In this document: positions 38,955-64,000 of the stretch, piece by piece | Layout: the number at the start of each line of letters is the position of its first letter | How positions within the stretch are numbered: position 1 is the stretch's first letter | Assembly: GCA_040954595.2 (NCBI GenBank) | Contig: CM082596.2 | Span: 8,569,124-8,633,123 of the forward strand | Length of the DNA stretch: 64,000 nt | Direction of reading: 5' to 3' | From: Balanoglossus misakiensis | Taxonomy: Eukaryota; Animalia; Hemichordata | Made by a program: the position numbers and the translations under genes | Notes under the pieces: generated by a model | The model's input: only the letters and a program-made list of their open reading frames with translations | What the model was told of the DNA's origin: nothing | The model's database searches: none

Positions 38955-39322
38955 CACCCAGACATGGCTTTGATACTTTTCACATAATAGCCACCAGGAA
39001 AATTTCATTTGTCAATTGTCATGATTGTTTTTCAATAACAGGGAACACAGGAATATTCTTGTTGAAAAAAAGTTAAACAAAGAACAATATCACTTCTTGC
39101 TGTTGTCTGTCGGTGCTGTAAATAACTGTAAAAGAACACTACAATCGCGCCCCCACCCCATTTTTTTTTCCACAATCAAACCTGCCATTCCTTGCCATAC
39201 TTTCTAAGGGACTGGTCAGTTTATTCGGCCTGGGGGGGGGGGGTTCTATTTTGTGGTAACGTTATCAAAAAGTGACTGACCCCCATTGAAAATGGAAATG
39301 TGGGTATTGCCGGAGCGCCCTC

Positions 39323-40156
39323 TGTTATGTAGGTTAAGTTTGCTATTGTTTTCGTGACCATGTGTGTTTATCGTTTACTTTCGTAATTTGAATATTTACG
39401 TGACCAGGTGTGATGCATTCATTACTTTTCTCGTATAAAAGCGTGCACGTTGCCACGTTGTGCCGTCTCTGCTGATTTGGACTGGCCCGTGTGAGCTGTG
39501 TTCCGTTCCTCACCGGCTTGGAAGCTTTGCCGTATCTCGTGTTGTTGGTCTGGAAGTCGCGCCTAGAAGCCGTGCTGTCTCATATTGTACATGTACTGGT
39601 CTAGAAGTCGCTCCTAGAAGCCGTGCTGTCTCATGTGGAACTGGTCTGGAAGTCGCGCCTAGAAGCTGTGCTGTCTCGTGTGGAATTGGCCCGGAAGCCG
39701 TGCGGTCTACCGCTGGATTTTTGCCAGAGCGCTACTCGGACTGAACGTCGCCGTCGGAACTGTCGCGGTGTTGTCGCGTTCGTCGTAAGCTAGTGCTACG
39801 GAACATTGGACTTTAGTCTTTCATTTCCACACCTGGTCACATTTAACGTAGTCGCTTATTTGTGTGTGTGTTTTTCGGTGTAAAATCATTTTGACATTTA
39901 TCAATGCTTTAGTTGTATTAATTAAAAGTTTCCATAAGGGACCGTTCAGTTTTTACGGCAGGGGGGGGGGGGGCGGCAAGTTTGTGTCATCTGTTCTCAA
40001 AATCAGGCCGACCCCCCTTCACCCAGGACCAAAAAATGATGACCCCCCCTTTGACAGACCCAAAAATATGATGACCCCCCCCCCCCCACGCCCAAAACAT
40101 TCGCCGTCCTGATCCTATGTACACTGTATGCAATACAGGGAATGAGGCTCCTCACA
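39323..40156 (+). mobile_element. Solo-LTR-like element, copy 1
   Basis: cctc|TGTTATGTAG...CTCCTCACA; TATAAAA at ~39434; ATTAAA at 39921; internal ~45-bp repeats. Confidence 0.65.
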
Positions 40157-40161
40157 CCCTC

Positions 40162-40996
40162 TGTTATGTAGGTTAAGTTTGCTATTGTTTTCGTGACCAT
40201 GTGTGTTTATCGTTTACTTTCGTAATTTGAATATTTACGTGACCAGGTGTGATGCATTCATTACTTTTCTCGTATAAAAGCGTGCACGTTGCCACGTTGT
40301 GCCGTCTCTGCTGATTTGGACTGGCCCGTGTGAGCTGTGTTCCGTTCCTCACCGGCTTGGAAGCTTTGCCGTATCTCGTGTTGTTGGTCTGGAAGTCGCG
40401 CCTAGAAGCCGTGCTGTCTCATATTGTACATGTACTGGTCTAGAAGTCGCTCCTAGAAGCCGTGCTGTCTCATGTGGAACTGGTCTGGAAGTCGCGCCTA
40501 GAAGCTGTGCTGTCTCGTGTGGAATTGGCCCGGAAGCCGTGCGGTCTACCGCTGGATTTTTGCCAGAGCGCTACTCGGACTGAACGTCGCCGTCGGAACT
40601 GTCGCGGTGTTGTCGCGTTCGTCGTAAGCTAGTGCTACGGAACATTGGACTTTAGTCTTTCATTTCCACACCTGGTCACATTTAACGTAGTCGCTTATTT
40701 GTGTGTGTGTTTTTCGGTGTAAAATCATTTTGACATTTATCAATGCTTTAGTTGTATTAATTAAAAGTTTCCATAAGGGACCGTTCAGTTTTTACGGCAG
40801 GGGGGGGGGGGGGCGGCAAGTTTGTGTCATCTGTTCTCAAAATCAGGCCGACCCCCCTTCACCCAGGACCAAAAAATGATGACCCCCCCTTTGACAGACC
40901 CAAAAATATGATGACCCCCCCCCCCCCACGCCCAAAACATTCGCCGTCCTGATCCTATGTACACTGTATGCAATACAGGGAATGAGGCTCCTCACA
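40162..40996 (+). mobile_element. Solo-LTR-like element, copy 2 (tandem, virtually identical)
   Basis: TGTTATGTAG...CTCCTCACA|cctc; by eye identical to copy 1 except poly-G length; 4-bp CCTC flanks the pair. Confidence 0.65.
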
Positions 40997-41351
40997 CCTC
41001 AATTATATATTTCTTAAAGTATTATTGAAGTATATAATAGCATATCGTTCCAATCAAGAAATCTATGAACAAATTAAAATGACAAGTCAATACAATAGTT
41101 GCTAGAATTGGTAAAACAAGAAAAGTGGCGGGGGTGGGCGTGGGAGAAAATTTTGTAAAAATACGGTGCTCAAACTTGCATTTTAATGAACTCAAAAGCA
41201 AATTAACTCAATGTTAGGGAGGACAAATTTTAATTTTGCCACTCCACTCAAAGTAAGCATCGGGGGTGGGGTGGCAAGAAGTCTTCCCTGGTACACTAGA
41301 CAAACCAGTGAATAAATGCAATGTGGCGAAGAATGGAGGGGGTGGGTTTAA

Positions 41352-43992: not shown

Positions 43993-44300
43993 AGGGACAA
44001 AGTCTTTCTCTCGCTGCCCTTTTTCCATTAATTATGTTTGATACATGTGGATATATAGTGAATCTACCTTGACTACACACAACTTCCATCCTGTTTGTAG
44101 GATATGAGAGTGAACATTTTGCCAAAATGAATAAATGGTAAAGAGTGATTATTAATTTTGGCGAGTTTTTTTTCTCTTGTTTCTACAAGTGGGGTGGAAA
44201 CTGTGTGGTTGAACGTTGATTCACTATATATCAACATGTACATTAACATAAACAGTGTCTTGTATCAAACATAATTAATGGAAAAAGGGCAGGGAGAGAA
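43993..44300. mobile_element. Kolobok-type palindromic MITE copy, right end eroded
   Basis: ttaa|AGGGACAAAGTCTTTCTCTCGCTGCCC...GGAAAAAGGGCAGGGAGAGA. Confidence 0.75.
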
Positions 44301-44940: not shown

Positions 44941-46114
44941 ATGGCAGATTTTGATTGGTTTAGGGAGTACCTTATAAGGCTGGCAGATGACATCGGAAAT
45001 GGTGAGTGTACATTTAATATTGTACATTTAACATTTGAATGTTTTTATCCCTGAGTGAATGGTGCTCTGGGACACTCATGAATGGATGTCTTAACCCATC
45101 AGTGTGCACGCCGTGGTTGTTCAGGGAATGTCTATAATTATGCAGTAGTTGCATCCACAGTCATCTCACATACAACCAGTGTTTCATCTAGACGATGGGG
45201 GGTATTAGATGGGGGGATTGACATGTTAACACCCCATAGCAATTTGTCTAGGGGGGACCAGTGCCCCTTAAAATGATGCCATTCACATGTTGGAGATATT
45301 ACAACCCCACTTGCCAGAGTGGAATCCCCCCAAAAAATTCTGGCAAAGGGGGACATATCCCCCCTGCTGATACCATCATGAGTGAAACACTGTACAACAG
45401 AGCTGATTTTATTCAAACTTGGCACAAAGACAATACATGTACATGATCATCCCATTTTCACTTTGAAATTTAAGACAGTGATCTACTGTACTTTTAACAT
45501 TTTTCTCAAAAGATTTCTTTCCAGAAAAATGTGTACGGTACTATAACTTTTTCTTTTTTCTGTTAAAGATGACCTGATTAAATTGGTAGATGGACTGGGT
45601 GCTATATTGAAACCTTCAATACCAACAGTTGTGAGGGAAGAAATTCTGAGAGAGAAACGTGCATACGTTTTACTTGACAAGTTGTGTAAATTTGGACATT
45701 TATCAAGAGACAAACCTGAAACACTTATTCAACTGTTGAAAAATGCCAGACTTTACGTGTTAGCACGGCATGTAGAAGTTCGATATGAGAAAGGATTTGA
45801 CAAAGACTATCCATATGATGAAGTGACAATTGAGTCTATGGTGAAAGTTGATAGCCCTCAAGAGATGAGTGACAGAAGTGGAGAGAGTTTCCACACATTC
45901 ACAACTGAGAGGACCTCAGCAGGACCACAGTTACCATCTACCAGTTGGCCAACATTCCCAACTGAGAGGACCTCAGCAGGACCACAGTTACCATCTCCCT
46001 CACAGCATCCAAGTCCCTCTAGAGAAGTGCAGCCAATGACATCAACTCGTCCCAAGATTCCAGCAGTGACAGCCACTCATTCCAAGACTCAAGTATACAC
46101 AACAGAATCTCATG
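44941..46114 (+). CDS. Death effector domain exons (44941-45001, 45569-46114) plus Ser/Thr/Pro linker
   Basis: MADFDWFREYLIRLADDIGNDDLIKLVDGL...EEILREKRAYVLLDKLCKFGHLSRDKPETLIQLLKNARLYVLARHVEVRY fits the six-helix DED pattern; 60-bp duplication TERTSAGPQLPS x2 at ~45904-45999. Confidence 0.7.
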
Positions 46115-49100
46115 GTAAGCGTATATCTCATGGTACCATACATTTTTATATACATTTTGTATTACACAAATACCCTTCAACCAGAATTAAATAATTATGA
46201 TTTTGAAAGAGATGAAATGATTGAACGAAATTGCATGTAGTCTATCTTCAGCTGGTCAAAGTGATTGTAACACATGTCATTTTGAGGTCATCTGACCCTT
46301 TGAAAAGTTATCAATTGTGCAGTTCAAATGCTCATGGTTAGATGCTGTCCTCATTAACGACACACCGTCCTACACAAGGCTTTGAATGATCTCATTTGTA
46401 ACCTCAAGGTAAAATGAAAATTTAATTTTGAAGAAAAACGGTGGTCATTGCAAGCATTTTGAGCAGTTGATCACTTACAATGCTTGTGGTAATTGAAATA
46501 TATTAGGAGTTAAACACACAGGTCAGAATGAATTCACCAATGTTTATCTTTCATATATACTTCAGGTTTTTCAGATGTTGGTGATGTTGCTGCTAGCAGT
46601 GCAGTTAGTTCAGCTGCAACACAGGCAGAGATGACGACAATGATGAAAGATCCAGAAGGTGAAACCACAAGTGTACGACACCACATCGACAGACATGCAC
46701 AATATTCCTTGACATCAAGACGACAGTCACCATCACCTAGGCAACAAACTGTTTTAGTAGGAAAGGACACTAATGAGAAAGGTAAAAAAATTACCAATCA
46801 GTCATTCCCAGGTGCAAGTATTGACAGCTACATGTTAAGTAATATGGAGAATTATCTTGCACCACCAGTGTGGGATGGGGATTTGTGGAAATGAAATTTT
46901 CACTACCAAATTTATGCACGATTTGAAAAAAAGGAAATTAAAGACAATGATCAAATTTCTTGCTTTTCTGTAACAAAATCTGCTTCTGTCATATCGCTGT
47001 GTTAGTGTGTGATTTCTTCACAAATAGGTTTACATTGCAAATCAATAAACACATCTTGTGTGCTCTTTTTTCAGATAAGGACCTCAAAAAGACCATCATA
47101 TTCCTGGCTGAAAAGTGGAATCGTGTGAAGGACACTGTATCTGCCCTCAACTGTCAACTTGCCAGCAGTGTAGCCGAAGACAGACAACGTAAAACATGCT
47201 GTGTTGTTTTGGAGGCAAGTGATGCAGAAAGGAAAGATGCAGCTGATTGTGGAGTTGAGTTGATACTTCCAAGTTTGAGAGACGAACTCGAGGATGCCTT
47301 TGGAAAAGATGAGCCCGTTCCAAAATGGATTCTTGTACCAGAGGTATACTTTACAACCCTTACAGAGTTACAAAATGTGGAATTCATTGTGGAACATGCC
47401 AAGCCTTCAGCAAAGCTCCTGGTTGCAAATGTTTTGAGGAAACGATATTTCAAAGATGCTAAGATTATCCTCATCAATCACACCATCCCATCAGTTGAAG
47501 TACAAGACAAACACATCAAATTTGCTGAGGAGGCATCTGCAGTTTTCTCTGTTGGACCAGATGTCTTTGAACATTACAAGAAATTCTACCAAACAAACGC
47601 AGTTCCTGTAAGACATGAGTTGTATCTTCCGAGACCAGAGAAAGAATTCTTTGATGTTAATGTGGATCAAATAGAAAAAACAAGTGACTTGAAACAAATC
47701 CTGACTGTGATAACTGATGAAGATGTGAAATCCCCACGATATAAAACACTGGCAGCTGAAGTTGGAAAAACAGCTAGTACATTCGACCAGATGCAAATGA
47801 CGGTTCCATTGTGGTGTGTACGTACTCCCCCGCAAGCTGATGTTGCTAACACAAATACTTTTCTTACAGTCAACTTAAATTGCCCCTACATAAAACCAAA
47901 CATTTATCCCTCATACGGCTCTCAAGATGATATTTACAGATATTTACGCCTGAGTAATGTCTGTATTATACCACCTGATGAGCCATTCAGGATGGAGGGA
48001 TTACGATCCATTGCTGCAGGACTACCTGTGTTAGTTCCGGAAAGAACTGCCTTAGCAACTTTCATGAACACATACCTAGGCCATGAAGCAAAGTATTTCC
48101 TGTATGACCCTTCCATTGATGGGAATTTGTCAGAACAGATCAATAAGATGTTGAACACAACACATGCAATACCCACGGCGACACGTTTGAAGAATATGTA
48201 TCTCAGTCACACAGAGATTACTGACAGTCATGAAAAGTTCAGAGCTTGTTTCAAAGAAGTTCAGAGTACACAGCCTGCACAAAGTAAGTATATTTCCTTT
48301 ACATTTACTGATCATAAGGTTAAAAGTCAGGCCATTGATTGAAAACAGTAGGATATCACAGATAAGCAAAATTTGAAGTTTCCTTCCAATATAATCTCAT
48401 TCATCTTAATTATTACAAGACTTCCTAGTATGAATTTTAGTCATTAGATTTTTTTGCTACTTTCTTCCTGTTCCAACACCTCAATTACCAGTTGAGGATG
48501 GAAAGACTATGGAGTGTAATTCATGCCAAAATTAGCACACAGCTTTTCGATGAGAGTATTCACTTTTCGATGAGAGTATTTGCGCTTTTCGATCAGAGTA
48601 TTCACTTTTCCATCAGAGCACACAGCTTTTCGATCAGAGTATTCGCTCTTTTCGATCAGAGTATTCACTTTTCCATCAGAGCACACAGCTTTTCGATCAG
48701 AGTTACCACCCCCACTTTACGATGAGGGCGCCCGCTTATTGATAAGAGCACCTAGCTTTTCGATTAGAACACCCAGCTTTTCTATCAGAGCGCTAAAGCT
48801 TTTCGATGAGGACGCACAGCTTTTCGATTAGAGTATGTCAGGTCTACTGGGGGTGAGCTTAGGGGGTCTTATAGCGGTGACCCGGAAGTTTAAAGTTTTG
48901 AAACTTTGACAGTGTGGACGCCCAATTTGTTTGCCGTCGACGCGTCGCGTCCTGGACGTAGCCCAGTGATCAAATGCACGGGTTGGATTTTACAAGAAAA
49001 TAACGTCATTTATTTTGCAAAGATCAACGTGAGTTCACTGCACAAAGTGGACCGTTGCCGACCCCCCCCCCCCCCCCCCCCCGTATCATCTCTTTCATCT

Positions 49101-52100
49101 TGTGTCCGGCCGCACTTGCGTTTGTGTGTCTCTGGGGACGCCAAGAATGCATATGCGTCTTTTTCTAATTTGAATATTTTGAATGGGTTAATTTAATGCT
49201 TACAAATTGATACATTTTAGGTCTGCTTCGACTGGAACGCGTCAAGTGTACATGTTGTTATGGAAGTTTATTTTAGAACCGCGTGGCTTGCCCTTCAAAA
49301 AAAAGCTTCTGTATTTAAGGTTGACAATTTACTTGCCGTGTATCATTATATAGTTGCTCCGGGCAATCGGGCGAAGCTTAATTTCGAACCCTGTTAAATA
49401 AATATACAAAACTCTTAAGCCCTAGTAACTAACTTTTAGCGATTTTTCAACTGTTTTTTTTCTTTAAGAATTTTTTGTTCTTCGCACAAACGATTCATGC
49501 CAAACTGCTACAGTGAATATACGCGCGCGCACAACGAAACCACAAAAGATCGAAACTTCAAAATGCGGCAGCAACTGACACTATTTCCTTAAATACCACA
49601 AGGCGAGGAGGCATGAATTGCAATTAAGATAATGAAGAAATTTCGACAATGATACTGTGTTGTGTGAGTTACATGTGTTTCTATATATACCTACTACTCT
49701 TACCCCCATCAGTGTTTGACCCTCGAAAGCTTACAGACACTACTGCTTTGTTTCAACTAATCCTTCGCCCTGTGAATATACTCGTACATTGACCTTTTGG
49801 GGCGGGATTCTTTTTTGGCGCGCAACCACTAGTACCAGGCCGCAGACCAGGAACTGGCGACCCGCCGTTTGTTTCCAACGCCAAATTTGATTCTAATGTT
49901 GAATTTCCGAGAAAACAATTTATCTGACCTGTAGTTTTCTTGGCTCGCTTACGTTTTAATTTGGAAACATTTAAAAAAATCATACGCCACCGTCTTGATG
50001 ACTGGCCCCTATTTTAATAATGGTATCGCCATGTTTCGCAAAGTTAGCTCAGATTCCATGAACTCGAGATTCTGTGCTATTTTCCTCAATCTACTGGCCG
50101 GTTTTGGTTCTCTGCTGAACCACTTCTCCGGCCTGGCGTCAACACGGTGAACGGTTCGTGTTTTGAAGCCGTTTCCCATGCACATGGTCAAAGTTTGACC
50201 TTCCGGTTTACTGATCTCCCTAGCATATTACTATAAATTTGATGGAAATTCCAGTGACGCGTTGTGACGTAGCCATGACGCGTTGTGACGTAGGCAAAAC
50301 GCCAGCGGGCCAAGTTGTAAAAACTCTTCAGTGAACTAGGGCGTCTGGGGCGCTCTTTAATCGAAAAGAGGGTGTTCTCATCGAAAAGTGAATACTGTAA
50401 TCGAAAAGCTGAGGTACTCTCATCGAAAAGAGGGGCGCTCTTTAATCGAAAAGAGGGTGTTCTCATCGAAAAGTGAATACTGTAATCGAAAAGCTGAGGT
50501 ACTCTCATCGAAAAGAGGGGCGCTCTTTAATCGAAAAGAGGGTGTTCTCATCGAAAAGTGAATACTGTAATCGAAAAGCTGAGGTACTCTCATCGAAAAG
50601 CGGGTGCTCTCATCGAAAAGCTTGGTGCTAATTTTGGCATGAATTACACTCCATAAAAGACTCCCTCAACTCGTGAAGATTTTGCAACTTTTGAAGGTGG
50701 CCAGCCTTCCCAGTCACTCTCACCCAAACCAGAAAACCTGGGTATAAGTAGAGTTTAAGCTTTAACTTTTCACTTGACTTTTATCAAAGATGTTGGCACC
50801 CTGTGTGATTAAGTTAACGACCATACCTCTGATGGTATGTACCCAATTATATCTATATGATAACCTCATATTGATAATGTTGACAGCTGACTTACAGTCC
50901 AGACTTTAATTAAAATTTGTCAACAATAACGATGTTGAGTGTAAATTTGCATAAGCTTTGTGTTGGGCATTACATCATGATTGGAGTAGAATAAAAAACT
51001 GCAGATGATACAAAAATAGTGTAAAATAACCACAAGATACGGTACTATCAGAACTGAAGTGGTAGAAATGGGTGCATATCAGATTTCATATGTTTGATTG
51101 ATAATTTGAAAACAACTAAAGAAAAGATATAACTACAGAAAAAGGTGTTTTCATGAACTAAAGAAATAAAAACTAGTGTGTTTTTGCTAGTAATTTGTAC
51201 ATCTTGATATTTTAATTAATTAATTGAGTTGAAGCGATTTATAGTGCAAATGTCAGTCATTTACATTTTTTTTTCTGTTTGCTAGTTACAAGTCCCCAAA
51301 CTGCTACCCATAGTGGAAGGAGTCCTTCAACTGATGAAGGTGTAGGAACTTTAGAAAATGCCTGTTCTCCTCAGCCACAAAAAAATGGTAAGTAGAGTTG
51401 GGATTACTTAGTTTAATATGCATTACGGTAGTTTCTGAAGTGAAAAAAATACACACCTATTTTCACTGAACTGCTCTTATTTAAAAATTTAAACTTTTCT
51501 CTTACAGGCGGTCCAGAATCTGCTGTTGTTTCAGATGAGAAACCAACAAGTGAAACTTGTAAATCAAAATGGATACGACGGAAAAGGCCTTTAATGCCAA
51601 GTAAGTTGTATTTTCTTCAGTTCTGCAGTAAGCTTCTTCATGATTTCACCACAAAATCTAGTTTTACAAAATCCATTCCTTTTTACATATTACATATTAT
51701 CCAATGATCCTGAACACCATAGGTTCTAGGGCAGTCACCCCCTGGACATTTCATACCCACAAAAAGCTTACTCTAATCCTACCCCATAACGCTGATTGAT
51801 TGAAATTTCCAGTTGGTGTGTTCAGTGGGTAACCAAATTATATTACGTCAACTGCTCTAAACACACGAGATAACTGAGCATTGAAATTAACATCAACTGA
51901 CGCTTCATGTTTCGTTTTACTATCATCTGCATTGATATTTCATTGCTATTTCCAGTAGGATAAATATATAATAATCTTTTAGGAGAAAACCTAAATTAAT
52001 GCTGAACTGTTTCACTGTTTATTCAACCCATAGCTGTTCAGTGTGAAGTAAATCTGGAATTTGAAGAAAAAAAGATGAAGATGGATATGGAGATGGAAAA

Positions 52101-55100
52101 GATGAGAGTGGAAACAGAACGCAAGAAAATGGAGCTTGAAACAGAACAGAAAAGGATGGACCGTGAAACAGAACACCGCAGGATAGAACTTGAAAAGTTG
52201 AAGGTGGAAAGGGAGAAAGAAAACAAGGCATTGGAGCTTGAAACAGAACAGAAGAGGATGGAGCTTGAAACAGAACACCGGAGGATAGAACTTAAAAAGT
52301 TGAAGGTGGAAAGGGAGAAAGAAAACAAGGCAATGGAGCTTGAAACAGAACAGAAAAAGATGGACCATGAAACAGAACACAAAAAGATGGACCATGAAAC
52401 AGAACACAAAAGGATGGAGCATGAAAGAGAAAAGATGAAGATGGAACTTGAAAAGGAGAAAATGGAGCAGAAACAGATGTTCATAAATCAAATAACAGCG
52501 ATTTATGAACTTCAGATAAAGAAAATCATGGACAGAGATGACCCAGATCTGATAGAACAGTTAGATAAAGCCTATGAGAAATATAAAGCAAGACTTGATG
52601 GAGTTGTGCAAGGCTCTTTATGGTTCTTACTAAGTTTCCTTTCGGAGGAAGACATTGATTATTTCTGGCAGAAATACAAAGCTGGAGAAGTTGATGAAAT
52701 GCTGAGTGGTATCCTAATAACATCCGATATGAGATCCTTAGCAGAGAAAGCTGGATGTGTTGTCAGAGTCAGAATGAAGATAGATGAAAAGGAGTATGAG
52801 ACTGTCAAACACATACTTCATGGTGAGTTATAGTTTTCACAACTATCATTATTGAATATCTTGAAGCACCAAATGAATTAGCAGACCATCCTACATAAGT
52901 TTTGCATGCTCTCACGGCCAAATGTATGCAATTAAAATGTAAATTTATTTTTGGAAGAATTTGGTGAAGTTGGAAATACACCTTTTTATTTCAGCGAGGT
53001 CTGCCAATAAAGACACAGCTGATGGTAACAAACAAAACCAGGTAAATAACAATCTGATTTCTAAGAGTAAACGGATAAGCACAAAGAGGTTTATGGAATT
53101 GATCCATACTGTTTGCTGTAAAAAGTTGTATGTCATATCAACACAGCTATATATTACAATATTGTGAAAACTTAATTGACAAATATTGGCCCCAAATATT
53201 CGATGAACTTCAACACTTTAAAATCATTCTCAAATTGCATGGTAACTGTAGCTATATTTTCTTAGGTGGCCATATACATTTAACACTGACACCCAGTAAA
53301 ATTTTAAAACCGCAAGGTCACATCCCCCAAATAAACAAATTGTTCATCATGATCATGAGTTCATTGACCAGAATATGTGACTGTGTGCCAGACACATTTC
53401 ACACAAAACCCAAACCTTTGTGGAATGTTGTTGTTACCAGGGTTTTATGCTTTTGGTGTGTTTTGGGGATATTTCAGGTACATCTAACAGACAGTGAATC
53501 TGGTAAGGGAACAACGGCTTCGCAGAAATATAATGACCCACAGGTAAGTAACTTTTGAACTGAAGTTAAAGCGCATAGCTCGTCTCACATGCATTTTCCA
53601 ACTGTAGCCGCTGGTTACAGATGTTTAGTGATCAGTCAATCCCATAAGGCAATGCTCTGTCCTAACAACAGAGAAGATGGCGGTGACCATAATCTGTGTC
53701 GGAGATCGGGAAAAGACACTTAGCTTGGGTGAAAATTTTAGGAGGGACAAAACCAGAATCTACTTATATGGTGCGCATGAAATATGGAAGGAAGCGAAGG
53801 CAGTCCACTATTTGAATTCATCGAACGGAAAATTTGCTGGGAAGTTACGTGCATGTGCATGAGACGAGCTACGCGCTTTAAGTCAGCTGGTTGCACAAGT
53901 GAAAAATAATCTGATCGAGAGAAAGTTTTTAACATCAAATTGTAACACCAACAGTTGCTTCAGAATAAAGTATAGTGAGATTTTTCGTGATGCCATTGTA
54001 CTATTTTTGATGGACAAAATACTTTGTGTATTGGGGATATTTCAGGTACATCTAACGGTCAGTGAAGCTGGTAAGGGAACAACGGCTTGGCAGGAATATA
54101 ATGACTCACAGGTAAGTGAGTTTTGAGCTGAATTCATAGGCAGCTGCTTGCTGCTGTAGTGAAAATATAGTCTGTCTGTCATGAGCGAGATGAAAACTTT
54201 AAATTGTAAGTCACACAAGTACGTGTTTCAGAATAATGTCATCATTCCATTGCACTCCTTTTTTATCTTGGTGAAGAGTATTCACTATGTTTAACCATTG
54301 TACCGGTATGATGTCATCTTGTTATCCACGGTGACGTCACAGTTTAATTGTGATTTTTCTATAATATTACTACTGTTTATGATTTCATATTGAGAATATT
54401 TTGATTAAACAAGTGTTGCCTGTTGATTGTTACAGGTTCTCATCAATGCCGCAAAGCATGGTGACATTGCAAAGATCCAGTCGCTGATAGCTGATGGATA
54501 TGATGTCAATGCAAGGGGTAAATTATACATGGACTATCGCCTGATCCCTGTAAGTGTTTATATTGGCCTTTTGTACAACAACAATCACACACAAGGATAA
54601 CTACACATATGAAACAGCAAAGAATTTGAATTCTAACATCAAATTTTCAAGACTATCTGTGCATCATATTCGGCCCATTATTGTACTCACCATCGTCAAG
54701 CAAAGATTGTTAAAACGTTCCATTTATTTATATTGGCCTAGCTTTTGTACACTCTGCATATCTGTGACTGCAGCTCACTGTAATGAAATTGCTAGAGGAT
54801 TTTATTCAAACGATCAAGTGTTGACACATATGAAATGTATCAGATTTGTGATGTCATTTTTATTCCAACCTTTAAACATCTTCATTCCAGTATTTAACAG
54901 CATTGCATGCAGCATCCTGGAAAGGTGGATTGGATACTATGAGTGTGTTGATTTCCCATGGTTCAGATGTCAATGCGAAGACTAGGGTACATAAACTAAC
55001 AAGTTATTACTTCATTAAGGACAAAGAAAATGGCTTCATGTGTATTTATATCTTTATGATCTCTGGATAATTTTGTTATTGACAATTATATAAATTACAA

Positions 55101-58100
55101 AACATTTGTTTTTGGGTCCCATTGGTATGTATCATGGGACCTTATGGGATCGGTTACGTCTGTATGTATGGATGTATGCCAGTATGGATGGATGGATGGA
55201 TGGATGGATGGATGGATGGATGTATGTCCGTCCACATCAAAAACTTGCAAACCGCTGCGTGTATCACCTTGATATTTGGTGTGCTGATGCAGGCTGGGCT
55301 GTAGATGGGAGTTTGTTCAAATGAAGTTGTCATTGTCAAAAATATGCAAATTAGCTGGAAAAATGTGAATTTGGGCAAAACTCAGTAACTCAAGAACTAC
55401 TGGTCAGATTGCTTTGCAAAGTGGTGTGTATTTACTTTATTGAGTTGTTTTAATTAGGCAGGAACTCTCCTGCTGTGTTTCATATAAACACAGCAAATTC
55501 CTGATGATTACATAACTGGCTAAGTTTTAAAAAGGCCAGCTGTTCTACCGTTAAAGTCATATTTGTAAACGCAGTTTTTTTACCAATGTTGCAAGTTTCT
55601 TATTGCTACAATGTCCGTGAAATCGGGTGCGTCTAATAATATGGCCTTATGCCAAGTTTCAAAACAAACTTTTTCTGTTCTCAGGAGAAGACATCGCCAA
55701 AAATCAGGTCAAAAACAAAGTACTTCCCAGTATGCAATCATACACTTCTACTCCTGCTGCATGACTTGTGTTCTTTCATTTTGCTCAAAAGTCTGAAGCC
55801 TATTCCTCATACAGTTCAAAAATCGTTTTACTCATACAAAGTTTGAGTTTTTGATATTTTCAAGTGTCATGTCTTGTCCATATATTCACCCCATAATGTA
55901 ATCTGAGACCTAGCGACTACTTCCACATAAACAATGTTGCAAATTAGTTACATGCCCATTGATAAAATGATACATGATGCACTGTCTGGGTCAACTAAGT
56001 CTGGGTCAACACTACTGAAGCCATGTGTCAATGGGTGACAAGGCATCAAATGTCAAAGTGACAGCCATTGAAAACTTCAACCAATCAGAGTAAATGATTT
56101 TAGAGGATAATTAATGAGAGGTCAACTACATGTCAAAGTGTATTCATATGTTAATTTCATGCATGTTTCATGGTTGTTGCGTTGACCAGCTGAGCAATTA
56201 TCAGCAACTGAGACAATGGAAAAGACATAGACCCATCAATTATGGGCAGTTGAGACAATGGAAAAGACATAGATCAGCAGTTGAGACAATGGCAAAGAAT
56301 ATCACCGTTAGTCTTTGGGCACTGAATGAAAGGGCGCATGTCCTGAGCAACACTGAAAAGGTTGCGTTCACAAATATGTACTTCTCCGTTTTTCCAAATC
56401 TTTGAATTTATGCCATTGCCACCTGCTCAGAAAGAGGGTGCGTTTATAATTATGGTTGCGTCTACAAATATGACTTTAACGGTATTTAGTGTATGTACAG
56501 TACAATGCCATTGGCAGCTTATGGGTCAGTCAGGGTTTGCCCATTGATCTCTCGCTACATGTACCCACGGTTACTAGAAGAAGACGGTTAGGAAACTCTA
56601 TTGTTAGGAAGGTGTGAACGAGGTGTTAGCTAGGAGAGTACATGTCCGAACCGCTATGTGGGGTTGTATTGGGGAACGTAGCTAATTTTTGAACCCCTTC
56701 ATCTGCCCTTTTTCGTCAGAGTACAGCGCCACTTTTTTTTGTACGAGTTCCATATAGGCTTATGGAGTGCACGGTCATAGTCTGTTGGGCTTGCGACACC
56801 CTACCATTGTTTCTTGGGTGGTTAAGTAAAAGTCCGGATTCAAAAAGCGTTGAATTTTGAACCCCTAGAATTCAACCCTGATGGTCGCATTTCTGTTTTT
56901 TTTAATATATTTAGATATTTTACACCTTTTTGTATTGCATGGGCTATTTCGTTTATTCCAATTGGAATATTTCGTTGAGATTGCATACCCATTTCGATAC
57001 AGTCGTTAACATTATCGATATAGCCTTTGGCGGCCATCTTGTTTGTTTTGGTTCGCATCGAATCTCTAGGGCACAGTCAAGACAAAGAATGTATGGCTTC
57101 ATCATGTCCTTGAAAGTTCAAAATTGTCATAAATGTGCTGTGACTTTATAAATTATCCACTCTCTGTTCTGTTTTCCTCAAATCTGGTGGTATACGTACT
57201 GTGCGTGCAAGCAATTCCGTAAACATGAGTATGGTTTGCTTTGGATTGTAGAGGTAATGACGTCATTTTGACCGAGCGGTCAGTTATTCTGTCTGTTTAT
57301 TCGTATGGCCAGGCTCGTTAGCACCTGATATCTTTCGTTTACACTAAGTGTTTACCGAGGCGAGCATCTAACAATGGAGAAAAAATAGTTTCCTAACCGT
57401 CTTCTTCTAGTAACCGTGATGTACCGTATGTGTGTGTGTGTGTATCTGTCTGTATATGGCCATGTACTCCGGTGTAGACTTTTTCTTGTGTAATCCCTCA
57501 ATGGGACCACCATGTCCTTGACGCGATTTTTAGAGTCTTCAATTAACACCATGTGTGGTTTGGTTAATTCTAATCAACATACAAACATTTGCTTGTCAGT
57601 TTGTTTTGTTTGTATGGTGAAAGAGACCTGACAGTACATTTTAATTTTTGTGACATTGTTCTCATGCTCCTCCTTCATTACTTACAGAATGGAGACACAC
57701 CTTTGCACTTTGCAGCAATATATGATGAAGGCAGTGAGAGATTGTTATTGGAACACAAAGCTGATGCTAACATACAAAACAAGGTAAATACAAACCTGAT
57801 TTCTACAGGTTATTGCTACTCAACATACAAACATTTGTTTGTTTGTTCTGTTTATTTATTTAAGGAGATCTCACAGTACATTTCAATTTTTGTGACATTG
57901 TTCTCATGCTCCTCCTTCATTACTTACAGCATGGAGACACACCTTTGCACTATGCAGCAGCAAGGTATGGTGATGAAGGCCGTGTCAGATTGTTATTGGA
58001 ATACAAAGCTGATGCTAACATACAAAACAAGGTAAATTCCACCATGACTTCTACAGGGTAATTCTAATCAACAAACAAACATGTATTTGTTTGTTTGTTT

Positions 58101-61100
58101 GTTTGTTTGTTTGTTTAAGGAAATCTCACAGTACATTTCAATTTTTGTGACATTGTTGTCATGCTCCTCCTTCATTACTTACAGGGTGGAGACACACCTT
58201 TGCACTCTGCAGCAAGGTCTGGTGATGAAGGCTGTGTCAGATTGTTATTGGAACACAAAGCTGATGCTAACATACAAAACAAGGTAAATACAAACCTGAC
58301 TTCTATAGGTTAATTCTAATCAACAAACAAACATGTATTTGTTTGTTTGTTTAAGGAAGTACATTTCAATTTTTGTGACATTGTTCTCATGCTCCTCCTT
58401 CATTACTTACAGAATGGAGACACACCTTTGCACTTTGCAGCAGAGGATGGCGATGAAAGCTGTGTCAGATTGTTATTGGAACACAAAGCTGATGCTAACA
58501 TACAAAACAAGGTAAATGCAAACCTGATTTCTACAGGTTATTGCTACTCAACATACAAACATTTGTTTGTTTGTTCTGTTTATTTATTTAAGGAGATCTC
58601 ACAGTACATTTCAATTTTTGTGACATTGTTCTCATGCTCCTCCTTCATTACTTACAGAATGGAGACACACCTTTGCACTTTGTAGCAAGGTATTGCGATG
58701 GAGGCCGTGTCAGATTGTTATTGGAACACAAAGCTGATGCTAACATTCATAACAAGGTAAATACAAACCTGACTTCTATAGGTTAATTCTAATCAACAAA
58801 CAAACATGTATTTGTTTGTTTGTTTGTTTGTTTGTTTAAGGAAACCTCACAGTACATTTCAATTTTTGTGACATTGTTCTCATGCTCCTCCTTCATTACT
58901 TACAGCATGGAGACACACCTTTGCACTATGCAGCAGCAAGGTATGGTGATGAAGGCCGTGTCAGATTGTTATTGGAATACAAAGCTGATGCTAACATACA
59001 AAACAAGGTAAATTCCACCATGACTTCTACAGGGTAATTCTAATCAACAAACAAACATGTATTTGTTTGTTTGTTTGTTTGTTTGATTGTTTGTTTGTTT
59101 AAGGAAATCTCACAGTACATTTCAATTTTTGTGACATTGTTGTCATGCTCCTCCTTCATTACTTACAGGGTGGAGACACACCTTTGCACTCTGCAGCAAG
59201 GTCTGGTGATGAAGGCTGTGTCAGATTGTTATTGGAACACAAAGCTGATGCTAACATACAAAACAAGGTAAATACAAACCTGACTTCTATAGGTTAATTC
59301 TAATCAACAAACAAACATGTATTTGTTTGTTTGTTTAAGGAAGTACATTTCAATTTTTGTGACATTGTTCTCATGCTCCTCCTTCATTACTTACAGAATG
59401 GAGACACACCTTTGCACTTTGCAGCAGAGGATGGCGATGAAAGCTGTGTCAGATTGTTATTGGAACACAAAGCTGATGCTAACATACAAAACAAGGTAAA
59501 TACAAACCTGATTTCTACAGGTTATTGCTACTCAACATACAAACATTTGTTTGTTTGTTCTGTTTATTTATTTAAGGAGATCTCACAGTACATTTCAATT
59601 TTTGTGACATTGTTCTCATGCTCCTCCTTCATTACTTACAGAACGGAGACACACCTTTGCACATTGTTGCAGCAAGGTATGGCGATGAAGGCCGTGTCAG
59701 ATTGTTATTGGAACACAAAGCTGATGCTAACATACAAAACAAGGTAAATACAAACCTGACTTCTATAGGTTAATTCTAATCAACAAACAAACAAACATGT
59801 ACGTGTTTGTTTGTTTGTTTAAGGAAACCTCACATTTATACATTTCAATTTTTGTGACATTGTTCTCATGCTCCTCCTTCATTACTTACAGAATGGAGAC
59901 ACACCTTTGCACTTTGCAGCAGCAAGGTTTGGTGGTATCGGTAAAGGCTGTGTCAGATTGTTATTGGAACACAAAGCTGATGCTAACATACAAAACAAGG
60001 TAAATACAAACCTGACTTCTACAGGTTATTGCTACTCAACATACCAACATTTGTTTGTTTGTTCTGTTTATTTATTTAAGGAGATCTCACAGTACATTTC
60101 AATTTTTGTGACATTGTTCTCATGCTCCTCCTTCATTACTTACAGAATGGAGACACACCTTTGCACTTTGTAGCAAGGGATGGCGATGAAGGCCGTGTCA
60201 GATTGTTATTGGAACACAAAGCTGATGCTAACATTCATAACAAGATAAATACAAACCTGACTTCTATAGGTTAATTCTAATCAACAAACAAACATGTATT
60301 TGTTTGTTTGTTTGTTTAAGGAAACCTCACAGTACATTTCAATTTTTGTGACATTGTTCTCATGCTCCTCCTTCATTACTTACAGAATGGAGACACACCT
60401 TTGAACTTTGCAGCAAGGTATTGTGATGAAGGCTGTGTCAGATTGTTATTGGAACACAAAGCTGATGCTAACATTCATAACAAGGTAAATACAAACCTGA
60501 CTTCTATAGGTTAATTCTAATCAACAAACATGTATTTGTTTGTTTGTTTGTTTAAGGAAACCTCACAGTACATTTCAATTTTTGTGACATTGTTCTCATG
60601 CTCCTCCTTCATTACTTACAGAATGGAGACACACCTTTGCACTTTGCAGCAGAGGATGGCCATGAAAGCTGTGTCAGATTGTTATTGGAACACAAAGCTG
60701 ATGCTAACATACAACACAAGGTAAATACAAACCTGACTTCTACAGGTTAATTGCCTTTACTAGGTCAAAGGTAAAGGACACACTGTTCACATACAAATTC
60801 AAGCATGCACAAAATCAAATCACATCTTGTTTGGCATGAACTGGAGGTGCTTTAATAACCAGTAACAACAAGAAAAACTGAACAATACTGATTTAACAAA
60901 GCACCCCACCTTTCTGTAGAAACAGGCAAGACAGAAAGGCAAAGTACAAAATACCATGATGAGGAAAATCATCAAATGGCAAAGTCTGAAACTGAACAGT
61001 ATAAAAGTCAGCTAATAGGGGGGGGGGGGGGGGAAACGACGTCAGGGTGGGAGAAAATGTGACTGGTAACAAAATGGCGTTCTGCAAGGCATCATGGGAG

Positions 61101-63913
61101 ATAAAGTCAAACCGCGGGAGCTGCCACTAGAGGGCTCTCCCTATCATAACAGCAATTAACCAAATTTTCAGCAAGAGACTTGCTATCAAATTTTACACAA
61201 TTGCCTTTACTAGGTCAAAGGTAAAGGACACACTGTTCACATACAAATTCAAGCATGCACAAAATCAAATCACATCTTGTTTGGCATGAACTGGAGGTGC
61301 TTTAATAACCAGTAACAACAAGAAAAACTGAACAATACTGATTTAACAAAGCACCCCACCAAAGCAGAGCTACCCAAACAAGATGTGAGAAAGGAGAAAA
61401 AGAAAGAAAACTCAACTACTCTAAACTATTACAAACAAACCACCACTGCCTCCACCCTTTTTAGACAAATGAAAGGAATGGAGGAGAAACTGGCTAGGGC
61501 TACTGGGAGAGAGCCCATGATTGTAGTAATGTAGAAGCGCTCAGTGGCAGGAATGGCAAGAAAGTCTTTGTATACTATAGAGCGCCAGTCCCCTTGCAAA
61601 CGAATCAACGAGTCTGATACTCCTGCCAGGGAAGCTGTGGTGGCCCCCCTTCACTTGAGGCTGTGAAAACTGAAGCCTAGAGGGTCAAGGCCAATGGCGG
61701 TGACTAGCGAACGAAAACGCTAGGTTAAAACAGGCTGAGTGAGTGGTTTAAATGTGCTACGGTGGTAAATTACAAATGCTGGGGAGGAGGGTGAGGCTGG
61801 AAGCAACTCAATCATATTGCATTATGCAATATGCGAGAACTGGGCAAACAGCACTGTTTGGCAGCAAAGCCAGAGGGTTGATGTATCTGTGTCCATTGGC
61901 AGCGAGTGTGATCCTGTCAATAACACTAGTGTCATCAGTGTCTGATAAATGGGTGCATGCAGAAGCAACGGTGTCCAAAGTGTCCATGTCCTGTACAGCT
62001 GCAACTGAGGCTGAATTAGAAAACAAGTGTGAACTGAGTGGCTGCAATGGAGGCGGATTTGTCTGTGACATAGCGAATTCCATCTGAGGGAGAAGTGACG
62101 TACGATTCGATGGCTGCAAGTGTGGCGGAATAGTGTGCACCTGTTCTAACATAGGTTGGCTCGCCCACTGTGGGTTGTGAAGACTGTGTAATGGTGTCTG
62201 TTGTGCTGACAATCAAAGGTTGGTAACCATGGCTAGGGTAGTGTAGATTGCGCGTCCAGTGGATCCATCTGTGTGAAATCTAGCTGAATGCAGAGACGAT
62301 GGTTTGGTAGGGGTCTCAACTGTGGAGCTCGCAATAGAGCGATCTGCAACTGCGGCGGAAAGTCAGTTGGGATGTAGGTGTCGGTGAGTCAGCCTGTGGG
62401 TTGCTTTTTTGGTTTGTATGGACATTCACTTGGTGGGTGTGACAGTTGAAGGTCGCGGATACGCAAACAGAAACGACAGATGTGATGTTCCATTATCCCT
62501 TCCTGGTTGTTGTGGTCATTGTTGAACTTACATTTTCCAAGCTGGTAGTCTGCACAGTATCTGGGGTTTGTCTTGTATTTGTAGCTGGTGTTGGCTCTCA
62601 TAGGGGCTTTGGTCAACTTGATATGTAAACATCTGGCTTTCTCCTTGGTGAAATCATATTGCCATGTGTTTTCCCCAGTCTCGATAGAACGCAGGACTGC
62701 ACAATGGAGCTCCCTGACATCGGCCCATTGGTAAATTTCTGCTAGGTGTAATAGTTCTATAAGGTGATCAGTTCTGGCAAGTCTGGTGGCAAGTGGCTCT
62801 ACATGGTGGATGATGTATAGTTCTCCACGTACTAGTGCTGGCATTGACAATGTGGCATATGATTGGTCATCAATGCTGCTGTCGGACTTGTGGGCATATT
62901 CGTGTGGCCATGGAACTTGGTAACGCACTTGCTCGCTGGATCTGCGAGCCACACCAGACTTGGGCTTTTTGCGATTGTGGAGTTTACGGAAGGTTTTGTA
63001 GTGCTGCTTACCTCCCTGCTCGAGCTGCGTGGCAGAGTCTGAGTCTGTACAGGATGACGAAGATGCTGAGGAATCTGTGTCAAACATCTTGGTATGGTGC
63101 GAGAGCAGCATTATGGCGAAGAGATGTAATGGTGGGCTTGTCCTGAGAATCCTCCATACCTGTAGGCGGTTTTGCCTTCAACTTTTCATTTCTCGCTAGT
63201 TCTCTCTTTAATTCTATTTCAATCTCCAGCTCTTCATTTTCCTTCTTAATCGCCTCTAGCATTTGCTTTTTAGGGCTGATAATGTCTCGATTACCTTCGC
63301 TGGTGTCCGGCTTAGACCATTCTGTCTTGATTGTGTCCTTTGTATTTTTCAAGTGGTCAGATGGTGTCACACTTGAAGTGCTGGCGTGCGTTTGAGGCGA
63401 CGATTTGTGGTCCATCTCGAAGGAGTTGTCCTTGTTTTCTCTACAGAGGTGTCCGGAAGGTCCTTTGTGGTGTTTCAAGTAGATAAGACAGGTTCTGCAA
63501 AGTCTTTGCGGCCTAGATGACATCGGATTGCAAATTGAGATTGCTCAGAAAATGTGACTGGTAACAAAATGGCGTTCTGCAAGGCATCATGGGAGATAAA
63601 GTCAAACCGCGGGAGCTGCCACTAGAGGGCTCTCCCTATCATAACAGCAATTAACCAAATTTTCAGCAAGAGACTTGCTATCAAATTTTACACAATTAAT
63701 TCTAATCAACAAACAAACATACATGTATGTGTTTGTTTGTTTGTTTAAGGAAACCTCACATTACATTTCAATTTTTGTGACATTGTTCTCATGCTCCTCC
63801 TTCATTACTTACAGAATGGAGACACACCTTTGCACTTTGCACCAAGGGATGGCGATGAAGGCCGTGTCAGATTGTTATTGGAACACAAAGCTGATGCTAA
63901 CATACAAAACAAG
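44941..63913 (+). CDS. Multidomain putative innate-immune/cell-death protein: DED, GT-B glycosyltransferase-like, coiled coil, TRADD-N-like, ankyrin repeats (3' end outside window). Exons 44941-45001, 45569-46114, 46566-46781, 47075-48283, 51286-51387, 51508-51600, 52034-52822, 52995-53041, 53478-53543, 54046-54111, 54436-54549, then the ankyrin exons
   Basis: All exons bounded by AG/GT with compatible phases (phase 1 through 52995, then phase 0), giving a continuous stop-free frame; domain calls from motif recognition. Confidence 0.8.
47075..48283 (+). CDS. GT-B fold glycosyltransferase-like (GT4/Glycos_transf_1) exon
   Basis: AKIILINHTIP; ASAVFSVGPDVFEHY; SQDDIYRYLRLSNVCIIPPDEPFRMEGLRSIAAGLPVLV resembles the GT4 EPFGLVxLEAxAxGxPVI motif. 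Confidence 0.75.
48508..50655. mobile_element. Non-autonomous DNA transposon with 6-bp TSD and TAYGG ends (IS3EU-like), subterminal repeat arrays
   Basis: aaagac|TATGGAGTGTAATTCATGCCAAAATTAGCAC...GTGCTAATTTTGGCATGAATTACACTCCATA|aaagac; TTTTCGAT arrays 48543-48830 and inverted ATCGAAAA arrays 50360-50620. Confidence 0.8.
52034..52822 (+). CDS. Exon with charged coiled-coil repeats followed by a TRADD-N-like domain
   Basis: Repeats of MELETEQKR/MDHETEHKK; then LDGVVQGSLWFLLSFLSEEDIDYFWQKYKAGEVDEMLSGILIT, matching the invertebrate TRADD-N pattern (GS-hydrophobic strand...W..Y..G). Confidence 0.7.
53478..54111 (+). repeat. Duplicated 66-bp exon with flanking intron (53478-53543, 54046-54111)
   Basis: VHLTDSESGKGTTASQKYNDPQ vs VHLTVSEAGKGTTAWQEYNDSQ; shared TTGGGGATATTTCAG acceptor. 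Confidence 0.85.
53570..53877. mobile_element. Kolobok-type MITE, different family
   Basis: ttaa|AGCGCATAGCTCGTCTCA...TGAGACGAGCTACGCGCT|ttaa. Confidence 0.8.
54436..54549 (+). CDS. N-capping ankyrin exon
   Basis: VLINAAKHGDIAKIQSLIADGYDVNARG...; tacag acceptor, gtaagt donor, phase 0. Confidence 0.8.
55114..57526 (+). mobile_element. Helentron-associated non-autonomous element (HINE), same termini family as 21319-25357
   Basis: TTTTT|GGGTCCCATTGG...CATGGGACC, (GGAT)n at 55185-55222, 3' AATGGGACC...GTCCTTGACGCGA|TTTTT; 55114-55370 is the reverse complement of ~25100-25357. Confidence 0.7.
56566..57418. mobile_element. Non-autonomous element with 7-bp TSD and CA..TG TIRs (P-element-like), nested in the HINE
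   Basis: atgtacc|CACGGTTACTAGAAGAAGACGGTTAGGAAACT...AGTTTCCTAACCGTCTTCTTCTAGTAACCGTG|atgtacc. Confidence 0.8.
57560..60750 (+). repeat. Tandem array of ~245-bp units, each one ankyrin exon plus intron (13 units). Exons 57688-57783, 57930-58031, 58185-58283, 58413-58511, 58658-58756, 58906-59007, 59169-59267, 59397-59495, 59642-59743, 59892-59999, 60146-60244, 60386-60484, 60622-60720
   Basis: Each unit CTTCATTACTTACAG|xxxGGAGACACACCTTTG...AAG|GTAAAT encodes xGDTPLHxAAxxGDEGxVRLLLEHKADANIQNK; all phase 0, 96-108 nt. Confidence 0.95.
61525..61885 (-). pseudogene. Tyrosine recombinase C-terminal remnant
   Basis: CPVLAY; GLDPLGFSFHSLK*RGATTASLAGVSDSLIRLQGDWRSIVYKDF corresponds to the HSxRxGxAT...GxWxS..Y catalytic motifs, with a stop and frameshifts. 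Confidence 0.8.
62389..63523 (-). pseudogene. Frameshifted gag-like ORF1 of the DIRS/Ngaro element (63523-63080 and 63111-62389)
   Basis: N-terminal CRTC..HHKGPSGHLC knuckle; WPHEY...YATLSMPALVRGEL...YQWADVRELH..VLRSIETGENTW; C-terminal CADYQLGKC...H...HICRFC...HPPSECP zinc fingers. Confidence 0.75.
63815..63913 (+). CDS. 14th ankyrin exon; array continues beyond window
   Basis: NGDTPLHFAPRDGDEGRVRLLLEHKADANIQNK with the same flanking intron sequence. Confidence 0.9.
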
Positions 63914-64000
63914 GTAAATACAAACCTGACTTCTATAGGTTAATTCTAATCAACAAACAAACAAACATGTGATTGTTTGTTTGTTTAAGGAAACCTCACA

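Follow-up and report, generated by a model that had tools for sequence, protein, structure and literature searches.

A stretch of 64,000 nucleotides from the hemichordate Balanoglossus misakiensis (GenBank assembly GCA_040954595.2, contig CM082596.2, positions 8,569,124 to 8,633,123 of the forward strand; hereafter the window) contains a chain of exons that a preliminary description read as a DED, a glycosyltransferase, a coiled coil, a TRADD-N domain and variable ankyrin repeats, possibly constituting an undescribed receptor class. The locus raises the questions of whether these parts belong to one gene, what each of them is, and whether their combination is new.

With regard to novelty, Kaur et al. 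(2021; PMC8195603) described GT4-TRADD-N proteins in hemichordates, amphioxus (cephalochordates) and corals (cnidarians), with GT4 before TRADD-N and repeats after it; they also reported a conserved turn of a tiny residue plus Ser in TRADD-N and placed this domain where the constant and variable parts of the proteins meet. Among the rows listed from their supplement, GT4, TRADD-N and ankyrins occur together without an NTPase in at least 30 (from B. belcheri, A. digitifera and S. pistillata) and also within a longer Saccoglossus protein, and DED, TRADD-N and ankyrins occur together in Saccoglossus; none of these listed rows has a DED ahead of GT4, TRADD-N and ankyrins. Because Kaur et al. describe GT4-TRADD-N proteins with repeats and list the combination with ankyrins, the class is not undescribed and the claim of a new receptor class does not stand; the locus probably represents a variant within a class of immune proteins already recorded from marine invertebrates. 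In the literature that we found on GT4-TRADD-N proteins, no member had been tested.

Gene model

The gene model consists of 26 exons with compatible phases, running from an ATG at 44941 to 63913 and encoding 1,602 codons with 0 stops, which bears out the single phase-compatible chain described previously. Acceptors are canonical in 25 of 25 cases and donors in 24 of the 25 internal cases; the exception is the ankyrin exon 60146-60244, which is followed by AT where the donor GT is expected (at 60245). The gene runs past the end of the window, with its 3' end beyond position 64000. A candidate exon at 50660-50741 was discarded as it lacked a good donor. The features are as follows.

44941..45001, forward strand: exon 1, start codon and first helix of a DED-like death-fold domain; the start matches that of the Glandiceps protein P0035
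45569..46114, forward strand: exon 2, remainder of the DED-like domain (to about 45792), then a Ser/Pro/Thr-rich linker
46566..46781, forward strand: exon 3, predicted low-complexity linker, phase-compatible, with no Pfam match and no homology support
47075..48283, forward strand: exon 4, entire GT4-conflict (GT-B) domain with a degenerate active site
48508..50655, no strand assigned: intronic inverted-repeat element with internal tandem repeats, outside the protein
51286..51600, forward strand: exons 5 and 6 (51286-51387 and 51508-51600), linker with motifs common to the Ptychodera relatives
52034..52822, forward strand: exon 7, TRADD-N fold containing an inserted helical segment
52995..54111, forward strand: exons 8-10 (52995-53041, 53478-53543 and 54046-54111), short linkers
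54436..54986, forward strand: exons 11 and 12 (54436-54549 and 54891-54986), divergent capping and first ankyrin repeats
57688..60720, forward strand: 13 tandem units of exon plus intron, one ankyrin repeat per phase-0 exon
60749..63697, reverse strand: retroelement-like insertion with split direct repeats, within an ankyrin intron and outside the protein
63815..63913, forward strand: 14th array exon; the array goes on beyond the window end

We infer that these exons form one transcript. The alignment with homologues runs through the GT4, linker and TRADD-N exons and hence supports the joins among them, while the TRADD-N to ankyrin join is predicted from phase alone. Alternatively, the locus may be split here: a DED-GT4-TRADD-N gene would stop with exon 7 or shortly beyond it, and the ankyrins would belong to a gene of their own or to an array that is not expressed. 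Homology with relatives ends at the end of exon 7, read-through from this exon meets a stop three codons into the intron, AATAAA occurs at 53006, 53330 and 53964, and the linker exons 8-10, of which exons 9 and 10 (66 nt each) are duplicates of one another, have no homologues. On the other hand, no separate start precedes the ankyrin exons, since only 3 open codons lie ahead of 54436 in frame, every donor and acceptor in this stretch is canonical, and the chain enters exons 8-10 in phase 1 and leaves them in phase 0, a change that exon 8 makes and that the join needs; in addition, the string of GT4, TRADD-N and ankyrins is among the supplementary entries listed for corals and Saccoglossus. We consider a division into two units unlikely and treat the locus as a single gene below.

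A further claim, that no exon encodes a Walker A motif and that NACHT and NB-ARC are absent, holds within the window. No Walker A-like motif was found in the gene model, the 2 six-frame matches to such a motif both fall outside the gene and on the minus strand, and profiles for NACHT, LRR, TPR and the post-TRADD-N region of the relatives gave nothing significant in six frames of the window, which contains no NACHT or NB-ARC domain with Walker A. A modular immune protein that is free of an NTPase within the window is a sound reading.

The DED-like region

Evidence for the N-terminal DED is divided. ESM Atlas gave a score of 0.89 with a death fold in 10 of 10 matches, and this part of the earlier assignment persists as a lead; by contrast, Pfam DED (PF01335) reached 16.5 bits against a cut-off of 35.9 (E 0.01, with a query piece without the first 20 residues), and our own DED profile scored 7.9 bits as compared to 7.5 for the best of 500 shuffles. 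A PDB search with the region gave no match. The DED assignment, made from sequence comparisons, is only a lead. Among the relatives, a DED stands right before a GT4 of the same subfamily in P0012 (57 bits) and, weakly, in P0002.

The GT4 domain and its active site

The glycosyltransferase assignment is firm, with the GT4-conflict family (PF20706) matching at 81.7 bits against a cut-off of 26 (E 7e-23). Only 2 of the 11 motif sites of the family are retained, H410, the conserved His of the N-terminal domain, and E577, the first Glu of the Glu-x7-Glu donor-binding motif. This motif is incomplete, its second Glu being R585 and the Gly of EPFG being R580, and the Gly-Gly loop, Arg and Lys-Gly-x-Asp are also replaced; T488, P495 and D294-T295 occupy the columns with the family R, K and G-G, respectively. 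Correspondence with enzymes was established by motif for the Arg, Lys, Gly-loop and His sites and by alignment for the Glu-x7-Glu stretch, where the motif from EPFG to the second Glu aligns with that of BshA. In other GT4 enzymes, according to the available part of PMC8760489, the second Glu contacts ribose and the Arg and Lys contact pyrophosphate, while one Glu is dispensable in some of these enzymes; the portion of PMC8231724 available reports that Ala substitutions of the Gly, Arg, Lys and Glu left hardly any activity.

All 11 motif sites are intact in 52 of 157 GT4 domains. The loss of motif residues seen here is common to the 7 nearest relatives, and these domains together form a clade of 8 with support of 100 in a quick tree, which includes Ptychodera and Glandiceps proteins and within which many structural positions of GT4 remain conserved. 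GT4 degeneracy also appeared to be associated with a following TRADD-N (8 of 47 intact domains versus 72 of 106 others, with 4 of the 157 rows left out for gaps); we do not claim this link, because it vanished in independent pairs (median p 1) and because the query biases the set towards degenerate domains.

The preliminary description regarded the glycosyltransferase as an effector, as Kaur et al. do for the class, which here would call for an active enzyme with a new specificity. Each of the 8 clade members retains His410 and Glu577, the equivalents of these two residues are called catalytic in MshA in the part of PMC8231724 available, and new Arg residues (R496, R580 and R585) could bind phosphate in another way. 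However, 9 of the 11 motif sites are replaced, and the replacements vary within the clade (R, W, Q or D in place of the second Glu), a pattern more in keeping with relaxed constraint than with a new specificity. The GT-B domain is real; the case for an effector role is weaker given the extensive loss of catalytic motifs, and an active, re-specified enzyme seems improbable to us. We predict from the motif residues that the domain is inactive, and it is probably a pseudoenzyme rather than an effector.

The TRADD-N fold and its helical insert

The TRADD-N assignment is well supported, even though TRADD-like_N (PF20694) gave no direct Pfam match at E 0.1-1, as is also the case for several close relatives. 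ESM Atlas linked the region to TRADD-like_N clusters (0.93, 215 of 256 features), its AlphaFold model has a pLDDT of 85.7, and a structural search of 48,161 chains returned TRADD-N 1F2H as the top match (Z 7.0, rmsd 4.1, 106 aligned), on a par with coiled coils at 6.7 and not well above the next rows; Foldseek placed 1F3V at rank 2 (E 0.99). The turn of a tiny residue plus Ser is present as G936-S937 (52612-52617), bordered by AlphaFold strands 186-191 and 196-200. Folding the TRADD-N core from a single sequence gave a poor model (pLDDT 50.9), which was set aside. A sequence search with the homologue alignment used for the insert gave no solved structure.

Strand 1 of TRADD-N lies at 52036-52065 and is followed by a helical insert of about 155 residues, made of 27/54/102-nt DNA repeats, and then by the remainder of the fold; in the AlphaFold model, the insert would sit between the first strand and the first helix. 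The coiled coil, previously described as a separate part before TRADD-N, is instead placed inside this fold. It had also been proposed that a long coiled coil drives oligomerisation and thereby replaces an NTPase. A helical insert after strand 1 is present in most aligned relatives, with the longest found here, and AlphaFold shows two long helices (15-85 and 120-165); however, insert length differs several-fold among relatives and grew here via short internal DNA repeats, the middle of the insert is predicted to be disordered, and a composition of 45% Glu plus Lys also fits a single stable helix or a spacer. Oligomerisation through the insert is hence a doubtful mechanism.

Relatives and the origin of the ankyrin tail

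The closest relatives, at 52-63%, are from Ptychodera flava; their tail is a helical region, devoid of an NTPase, together with LRRs. Ptychodera flava XP_070546064.1 and XP_070546356.1 and Glandiceps XP_077996746.1 share with the window gene 43-59% identity over GT4, linker motifs, a TRADD-N with an insert and the same loss of motif residues, and differ from it in having a helical region and LRRs in the place of ankyrins. In a quick tree, P0001-P0004 form the sister group and P0005 the outgroup, and all of these carry a terminal helical region plus LRR. Because the closest relatives end in this way, the ankyrins are likely a swapped-in sensor. The helical region of the relatives aligns weakly, in register, with the part of NACHT proteins that follows the P-loop (hhalign E 0.0067, probability 5.7%).

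GT4-NACHT-LRR NLRs are reportedly present in corals. The amphioxus proteins of this type, P0090 and P0113, likewise carry GT4-conflict N-terminal to a repeat sensor and have a NACHT, which the window gene does not have in the window; P0090 retains 11 of 11 GT4 motif sites, in contrast to the degenerate domain here. Our own profile identified TRADD-N in 56 of 156 fetched relatives, with tails of LRR, TPR, NHL or PARP14-like type. GT4, TRADD-N and ankyrins occurred together in 0 of the 156 relatives inspected, and a third homologue search yielded 5 proteins among 7,988 candidates, with ankyrins in none. P0129, which is XP_019641871.1 of the table of Kaur et al. (placed under DEDD2; PMC8195603), passes Pfam TRADD-like_N and was scored by our own TRADD-N profile; this sole table entry checked has no ankyrin by Pfam or by eye. 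The tie of the window gene to the DEDD2 clade consists of profile linkage to XP_019641871.1 only. GT4-TRADD-N proteins of that clade have GT4-conflict before TRADD-N, repeats after it and no NTPase (PMC8195603), and the window gene resembles them in its GT4-conflict before TRADD-N, in the repeats predicted to follow and in having no NTPase within the window; the window gene differs from the class in its additional N-terminal DED-like domain, as judged from the supplement rows listed, in its degenerate GT4 active site, a loss on which the main text is silent for GT4, in the long helical insert inside TRADD-N and in a young array with one exon per repeat.

The ankyrin array

The variable ankyrins of the preliminary description were recovered by Pfam, as Ankyrin PF00023 exceeded its cut-off of 21.1 in 3 of the 4 ankyrin exons scanned (29.8, 44.1 and 37.4 bits), with a weak Ank_4 match only in the capping exon. 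Array exons are 96-108 nt long, each encoding one repeat, and the frame is kept in 14 of 14 of them, whereas 8 of 12 array intron lengths are not divisible by 3. The 12 whole units compared are 228-263 bp long and 87-100% identical, and the array holds a 4-unit higher-order repeat. Variation is clustered among the repeats, with 23 of 32 allele changes falling within 33 of 99 columns, mainly codons 8-21 (permutation p 0.00025). Part of this variation falls where the outer helix begins, away from the usual binding face of ankyrin repeats. Fungal NLRs, as described in the part of PMC4986451 available, are alike in their near-identical internal repeats and in variation focused on few positions, and differ in having an NTPase and demonstrated positive selection, while here every repeat has an exon to itself.

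Neutral turnover of a minisatellite-like array could also produce variation, with the gene, or its ankyrin array, being a young and decaying product of shuffling. Consistent with decay are the donor lost at 60245, the retroelement-like insertion inside the array, substitutions in the ankyrin core motif of two array copies, and an excess of amino-acid changes that is not significant (24 to 2, p 0.076, a count that omits one gapped codon holding both kinds of change). Nevertheless, the 1,602 codons contain no stop or frameshift, exon length changes are all multiples of 3, and the variation is clustered rather than even; this reading is, in our judgment, quite improbable.

Proposed mechanism

We lean, by a modest degree, towards reading the product of the locus as a single cytosolic GT4-TRADD-N protein with a role in immunity or cell death that works as follows. 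Target recognition would fall to the variable ankyrin array and switching to TRADD-N, whose clamp would be released upon sensing; the DED-like domain would then recruit death-fold partners, such as a FADD- or caspase-8-like protein, in an order borrowed by analogy from Kaur et al. The GT4 domain is predicted to act as a non-catalytic scaffold or ligand-binding module. The ankyrins would have replaced the helical-region-plus-LRR tail by exon shuffling at the intron after TRADD-N, and gain, loss and exchange of repeats would diversify the binding surface.

A bolder and rather speculative extension, which we think unlikely to hold as a whole, is that the acorn-worm GT4 is a pseudoenzyme that keeps only two sugar-contacting residues and acts as a cytosolic glycan or nucleotide-sugar sensor, or as a decoy for pathogen glycosyltransferase inhibitors, within DED receptors that have no NTPase and descend from NLRs that shed their P-loop, with the young exon-modular ankyrin array diversifying a second recognition surface here. 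Should GT4 prove dead throughout a clade that two acorn-worm genera share, the published account of GT4 as an effector would have to be extended by a second branch, with GT-B folds as sensors, decoys or scaffolds. The gene resembles a snapshot of sensor swapping, from an LRR tail to an ankyrin array, on a fixed chassis, and the array offers directly testable repeat polymorphism.

Gene Structure and Relation to Described Receptors

The window DNA is AT-rich and of animal type, with spliced genes. At 44941-63913 on the + strand, 26 phase-compatible exons yield 1,602 stop-free codons in an exon-phase model, in agreement with the single exon chain proposed in a preliminary description; phase 1 joins exons 1-7, exon 8 changes to phase 0, and each ankyrin repeat is a single phase-0 exon. 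The GT4-conflict (GT4; PF20706) and ankyrin domains of the predicted protein both exceeded Pfam cut-offs, confirming these two calls, and neither a Walker A motif nor a match to the NACHT, LRR, or TPR profiles was found in the gene, consistent with the reported lack of an NTPase. Relatives align continuously over GT4, two linker exons, and TRADD-N, which provides outside support for those joins; the DED-to-GT4 and TRADD-N-to-ankyrin joins are predicted from phase and the absence of an independent start. DED-before-GT4 order is seen in the relatives P0012 and, weakly, P0002. We consider it unlikely that the locus represents two units.

The proposal of an undescribed receptor class did not hold. 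The available sections of Kaur et al. (PMC8195603) describe GT4, then TRADD-N, then LRRs in cephalochordates, hemichordates, and cnidarians, with TRADD-N, lying between the constant and the variable parts, proposed as a switch. GT4+TRADD-N+ankyrin accounts for at least 34 supplement rows, at least 30 with exactly that string (at least two from B. belcheri, at least 27 from A. digitifera representing at least eight loci, and at least one from Stylophora); others include at least three with an added AP-ATPase and at least one longer Saccoglossus protein. In one checked row, XP_019641871.1 (P0129), no ankyrin was found; the database names of three other such entries include ankyrin. Among the supplement rows listed, four combine DED with GT4, and none of these four included TRADD-N. 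The points that appear new are a probable pseudoenzyme clade, an insert within TRADD-N, and an apparent LRR-to-ankyrin swap; overall, the preliminary observation was borne out in part and its interpretation supported in part.

The N-terminal DED is the weak domain call; ESM Atlas gives DED as a lead and the N-terminus is 32% identical to that of the Glandiceps protein P0035 over 148 residues, but DED scored below the Pfam cut-off and, against three confirmed DEDs, no better than shuffles.

A Probable GT4 Pseudoenzyme

By identity to the GT4 exon, the closest proteins are those of Ptychodera flava, at 52-63%, and of Glandiceps talaboti, at 43%, so an acorn worm is the likely source of the DNA. 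All 11 motif positions are retained in 52 of the 157 GT4 domains of the compared set, and two, His410 and Glu577, in the window GT4. The latter lacks the second Glu and the Gly that follows Glu-Pro-Phe, as well as the Gly-Gly loop and both the Gly-Arg and the Lys-Gly-x-Asp motif; the stretch from Glu-Pro-Phe to the second Glu was placed by alignment to BshA, the other sites by motif only. According to the available parts of PMC8760489 and PMC8231724, sugar contacts in characterised GT4 enzymes are made by the His and the first Glu, while the second Glu binds the ribose and the pyrophosphate is bound by Arg and Lys; replacement of these sites by Ala almost abolishes activity, and some enzymes can dispense with one Glu. 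The motif loss is common to the seven nearest GT4 domains, all of which keep the His and first Glu, and which form one clade with the window GT4 (support 100; quick tree of 48 chosen rows of 157). Judged from sequence, the window GT4 is thus probably a disarmed pseudoenzyme; an active, re-specified enzyme, for which the retained His and first Glu would speak, seems improbable given the sites lost.

A statement on inactive GT4 was not found in the available main text of PMC8195603, nor was a report of one in such receptors in the literature searched, outside of which most subscription journals fall. A second degenerate GT4 group, mainly hemichordate, shows a different loss pattern. A raw association between degeneracy and a following TRADD-N disappeared under phylogenetic control. 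Other architectures among the relatives include a hemichordate-type group (P0016-P0050) with a repeated partial GT4 N-domain ahead of a degenerate GT4, TRADD-N, and NHL repeats, a GT4, death, and DXO-like nuclease fusion (P0059), and a GT4, TRADD-N, and PARP14-like fusion (P0061).

TRADD-N and Its Helical Insert

While the window protein had no direct Pfam match for TRADD-N, the call was supported by ESM Atlas (0.93), by a profile that likewise picks up P0129, a protein passing PF20694, and by the Gly-Ser turn named for TRADD-N by Kaur et al. (available sections of PMC8195603). In an AlphaFold model of the region (pLDDT 85.7; 26 sequences), the best structural match of model 1-261 among 48,161 chains was TRADD-N 1F2H (Z 7.0, rmsd 4.1, 106 aligned), with coiled coils next (Z 6.7); Foldseek gave E 0.99. 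Because this match begins at the strand preceding the coiled coil, and because in most relatives this strand likewise precedes a helical insert, which varies in length, the coiled coil, described previously as lying ahead of TRADD-N, is present and is placed by model and alignment within its fold, as an insertion enlarged in the window gene by short DNA repeats. A coiled-coil oligomer substituting for the NTPase is compatible with the main reading developed below; we regard it as doubtful.

Likely Replacement of an LRR Tail by Ankyrins

In the nearest full-length relatives, TRADD-N is followed by a helical region and LRRs, without a P-loop. This tail occurs in both the sister group (P0001-P0004) and the Glandiceps outgroup (P0005; joining branch support 88, quick tree); the window gene therefore likely lost it and acquired ankyrin exons. 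Three GT4-NACHT-LRR proteins align with this helical region weakly, in matching register, through the part that follows their P-loop (8.0, 4.3, and 4.0 bits; best of 300 shuffles, 1.8); hhalign against NACHT proteins gave E 0.0067 and a probability of 5.7%. In the TRADD-N proteins P0001-P0005, P0008, P0009, and P0114, the pre-LRR helical region weakly resembles a NACHT module lacking its P-loop part, and these may possibly be NLRs that shed their NTPase.

The array comprises 14 exons, 11 of them distinct, and extends beyond the window end; units are 87-100% identical, and a four-unit block is duplicated at 96.9%. Codons 8-21 (33 of 99 columns) hold 23 of the 32 allele changes (permutation p 0.00025), and codons 22-33 are nearly invariant; the 24 amino-acid to 2 silent changes (p 0.076, one gapped codon omitted) do not amount to evidence of positive selection. 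The nearest precedent is the ankyrin arrays of fungal NLRs (available part of PMC4986451). Exon 60146-60244 has an AT instead of a GT donor, with the frame kept if it is skipped and a stop reached if it is retained; array exons differ in length only by multiples of three, and decay of the gene or array is the least probable reading.

One array intron carries an insertion:
60749-63697, insertion resembling a retroelement, its direct repeats split and 100% identical
60749-60910 = 61199-61360 and 61052-61202 = 63547-63697, the split direct repeats
63544-63083 and 63177-62392, minus strand, two ORFs with Cys/His clusters, no Pfam match

We take this layout to resemble a young non-autonomous Ngaro/DIRS-type retrotransposon.

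At every step by inference, and with slightly better than even confidence, we favor a mechanism in which the ankyrin array would bind a foreign or damage-associated protein, TRADD-N would let go of its flanking domains, and the DED-like domain would recruit death-fold partners, with GT4 serving, without catalysis, as a scaffold or a module that binds a ligand.

Other Features of the Window

2609-2963, 12505-12867, 16932-17286, 20123-20340, 31379-31739, 35930-36297, and 44032-44299, palindromic MITE-like repeats, ~350 bp
5073-6336, + strand, exons encoding an Ig domain (Pfam E 3e-7) and, by eye, a thrombospondin-like motif
18600-30200, + strand, gene of several exons encoding an ARID domain (Pfam E 1e-16) and long charged regions
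21375-22536, ~238-bp tandem array
35596-35931, - strand, B9-C2 domain exon (E 2e-31)
39318-40998, 842-bp tandem duplication, 99.9% identity, possibly an assembly artefact
48508-50655, foldback-like element in an intron, its long, imperfectly inverted ends composed of 20-85 bp tandem repeats

The ARID gene is presumably ARID4-like, and a possible membrane segment lies near 6700, after the 5073-6336 exons. The seven MITE-like repeats form one family, 74-89% alike.
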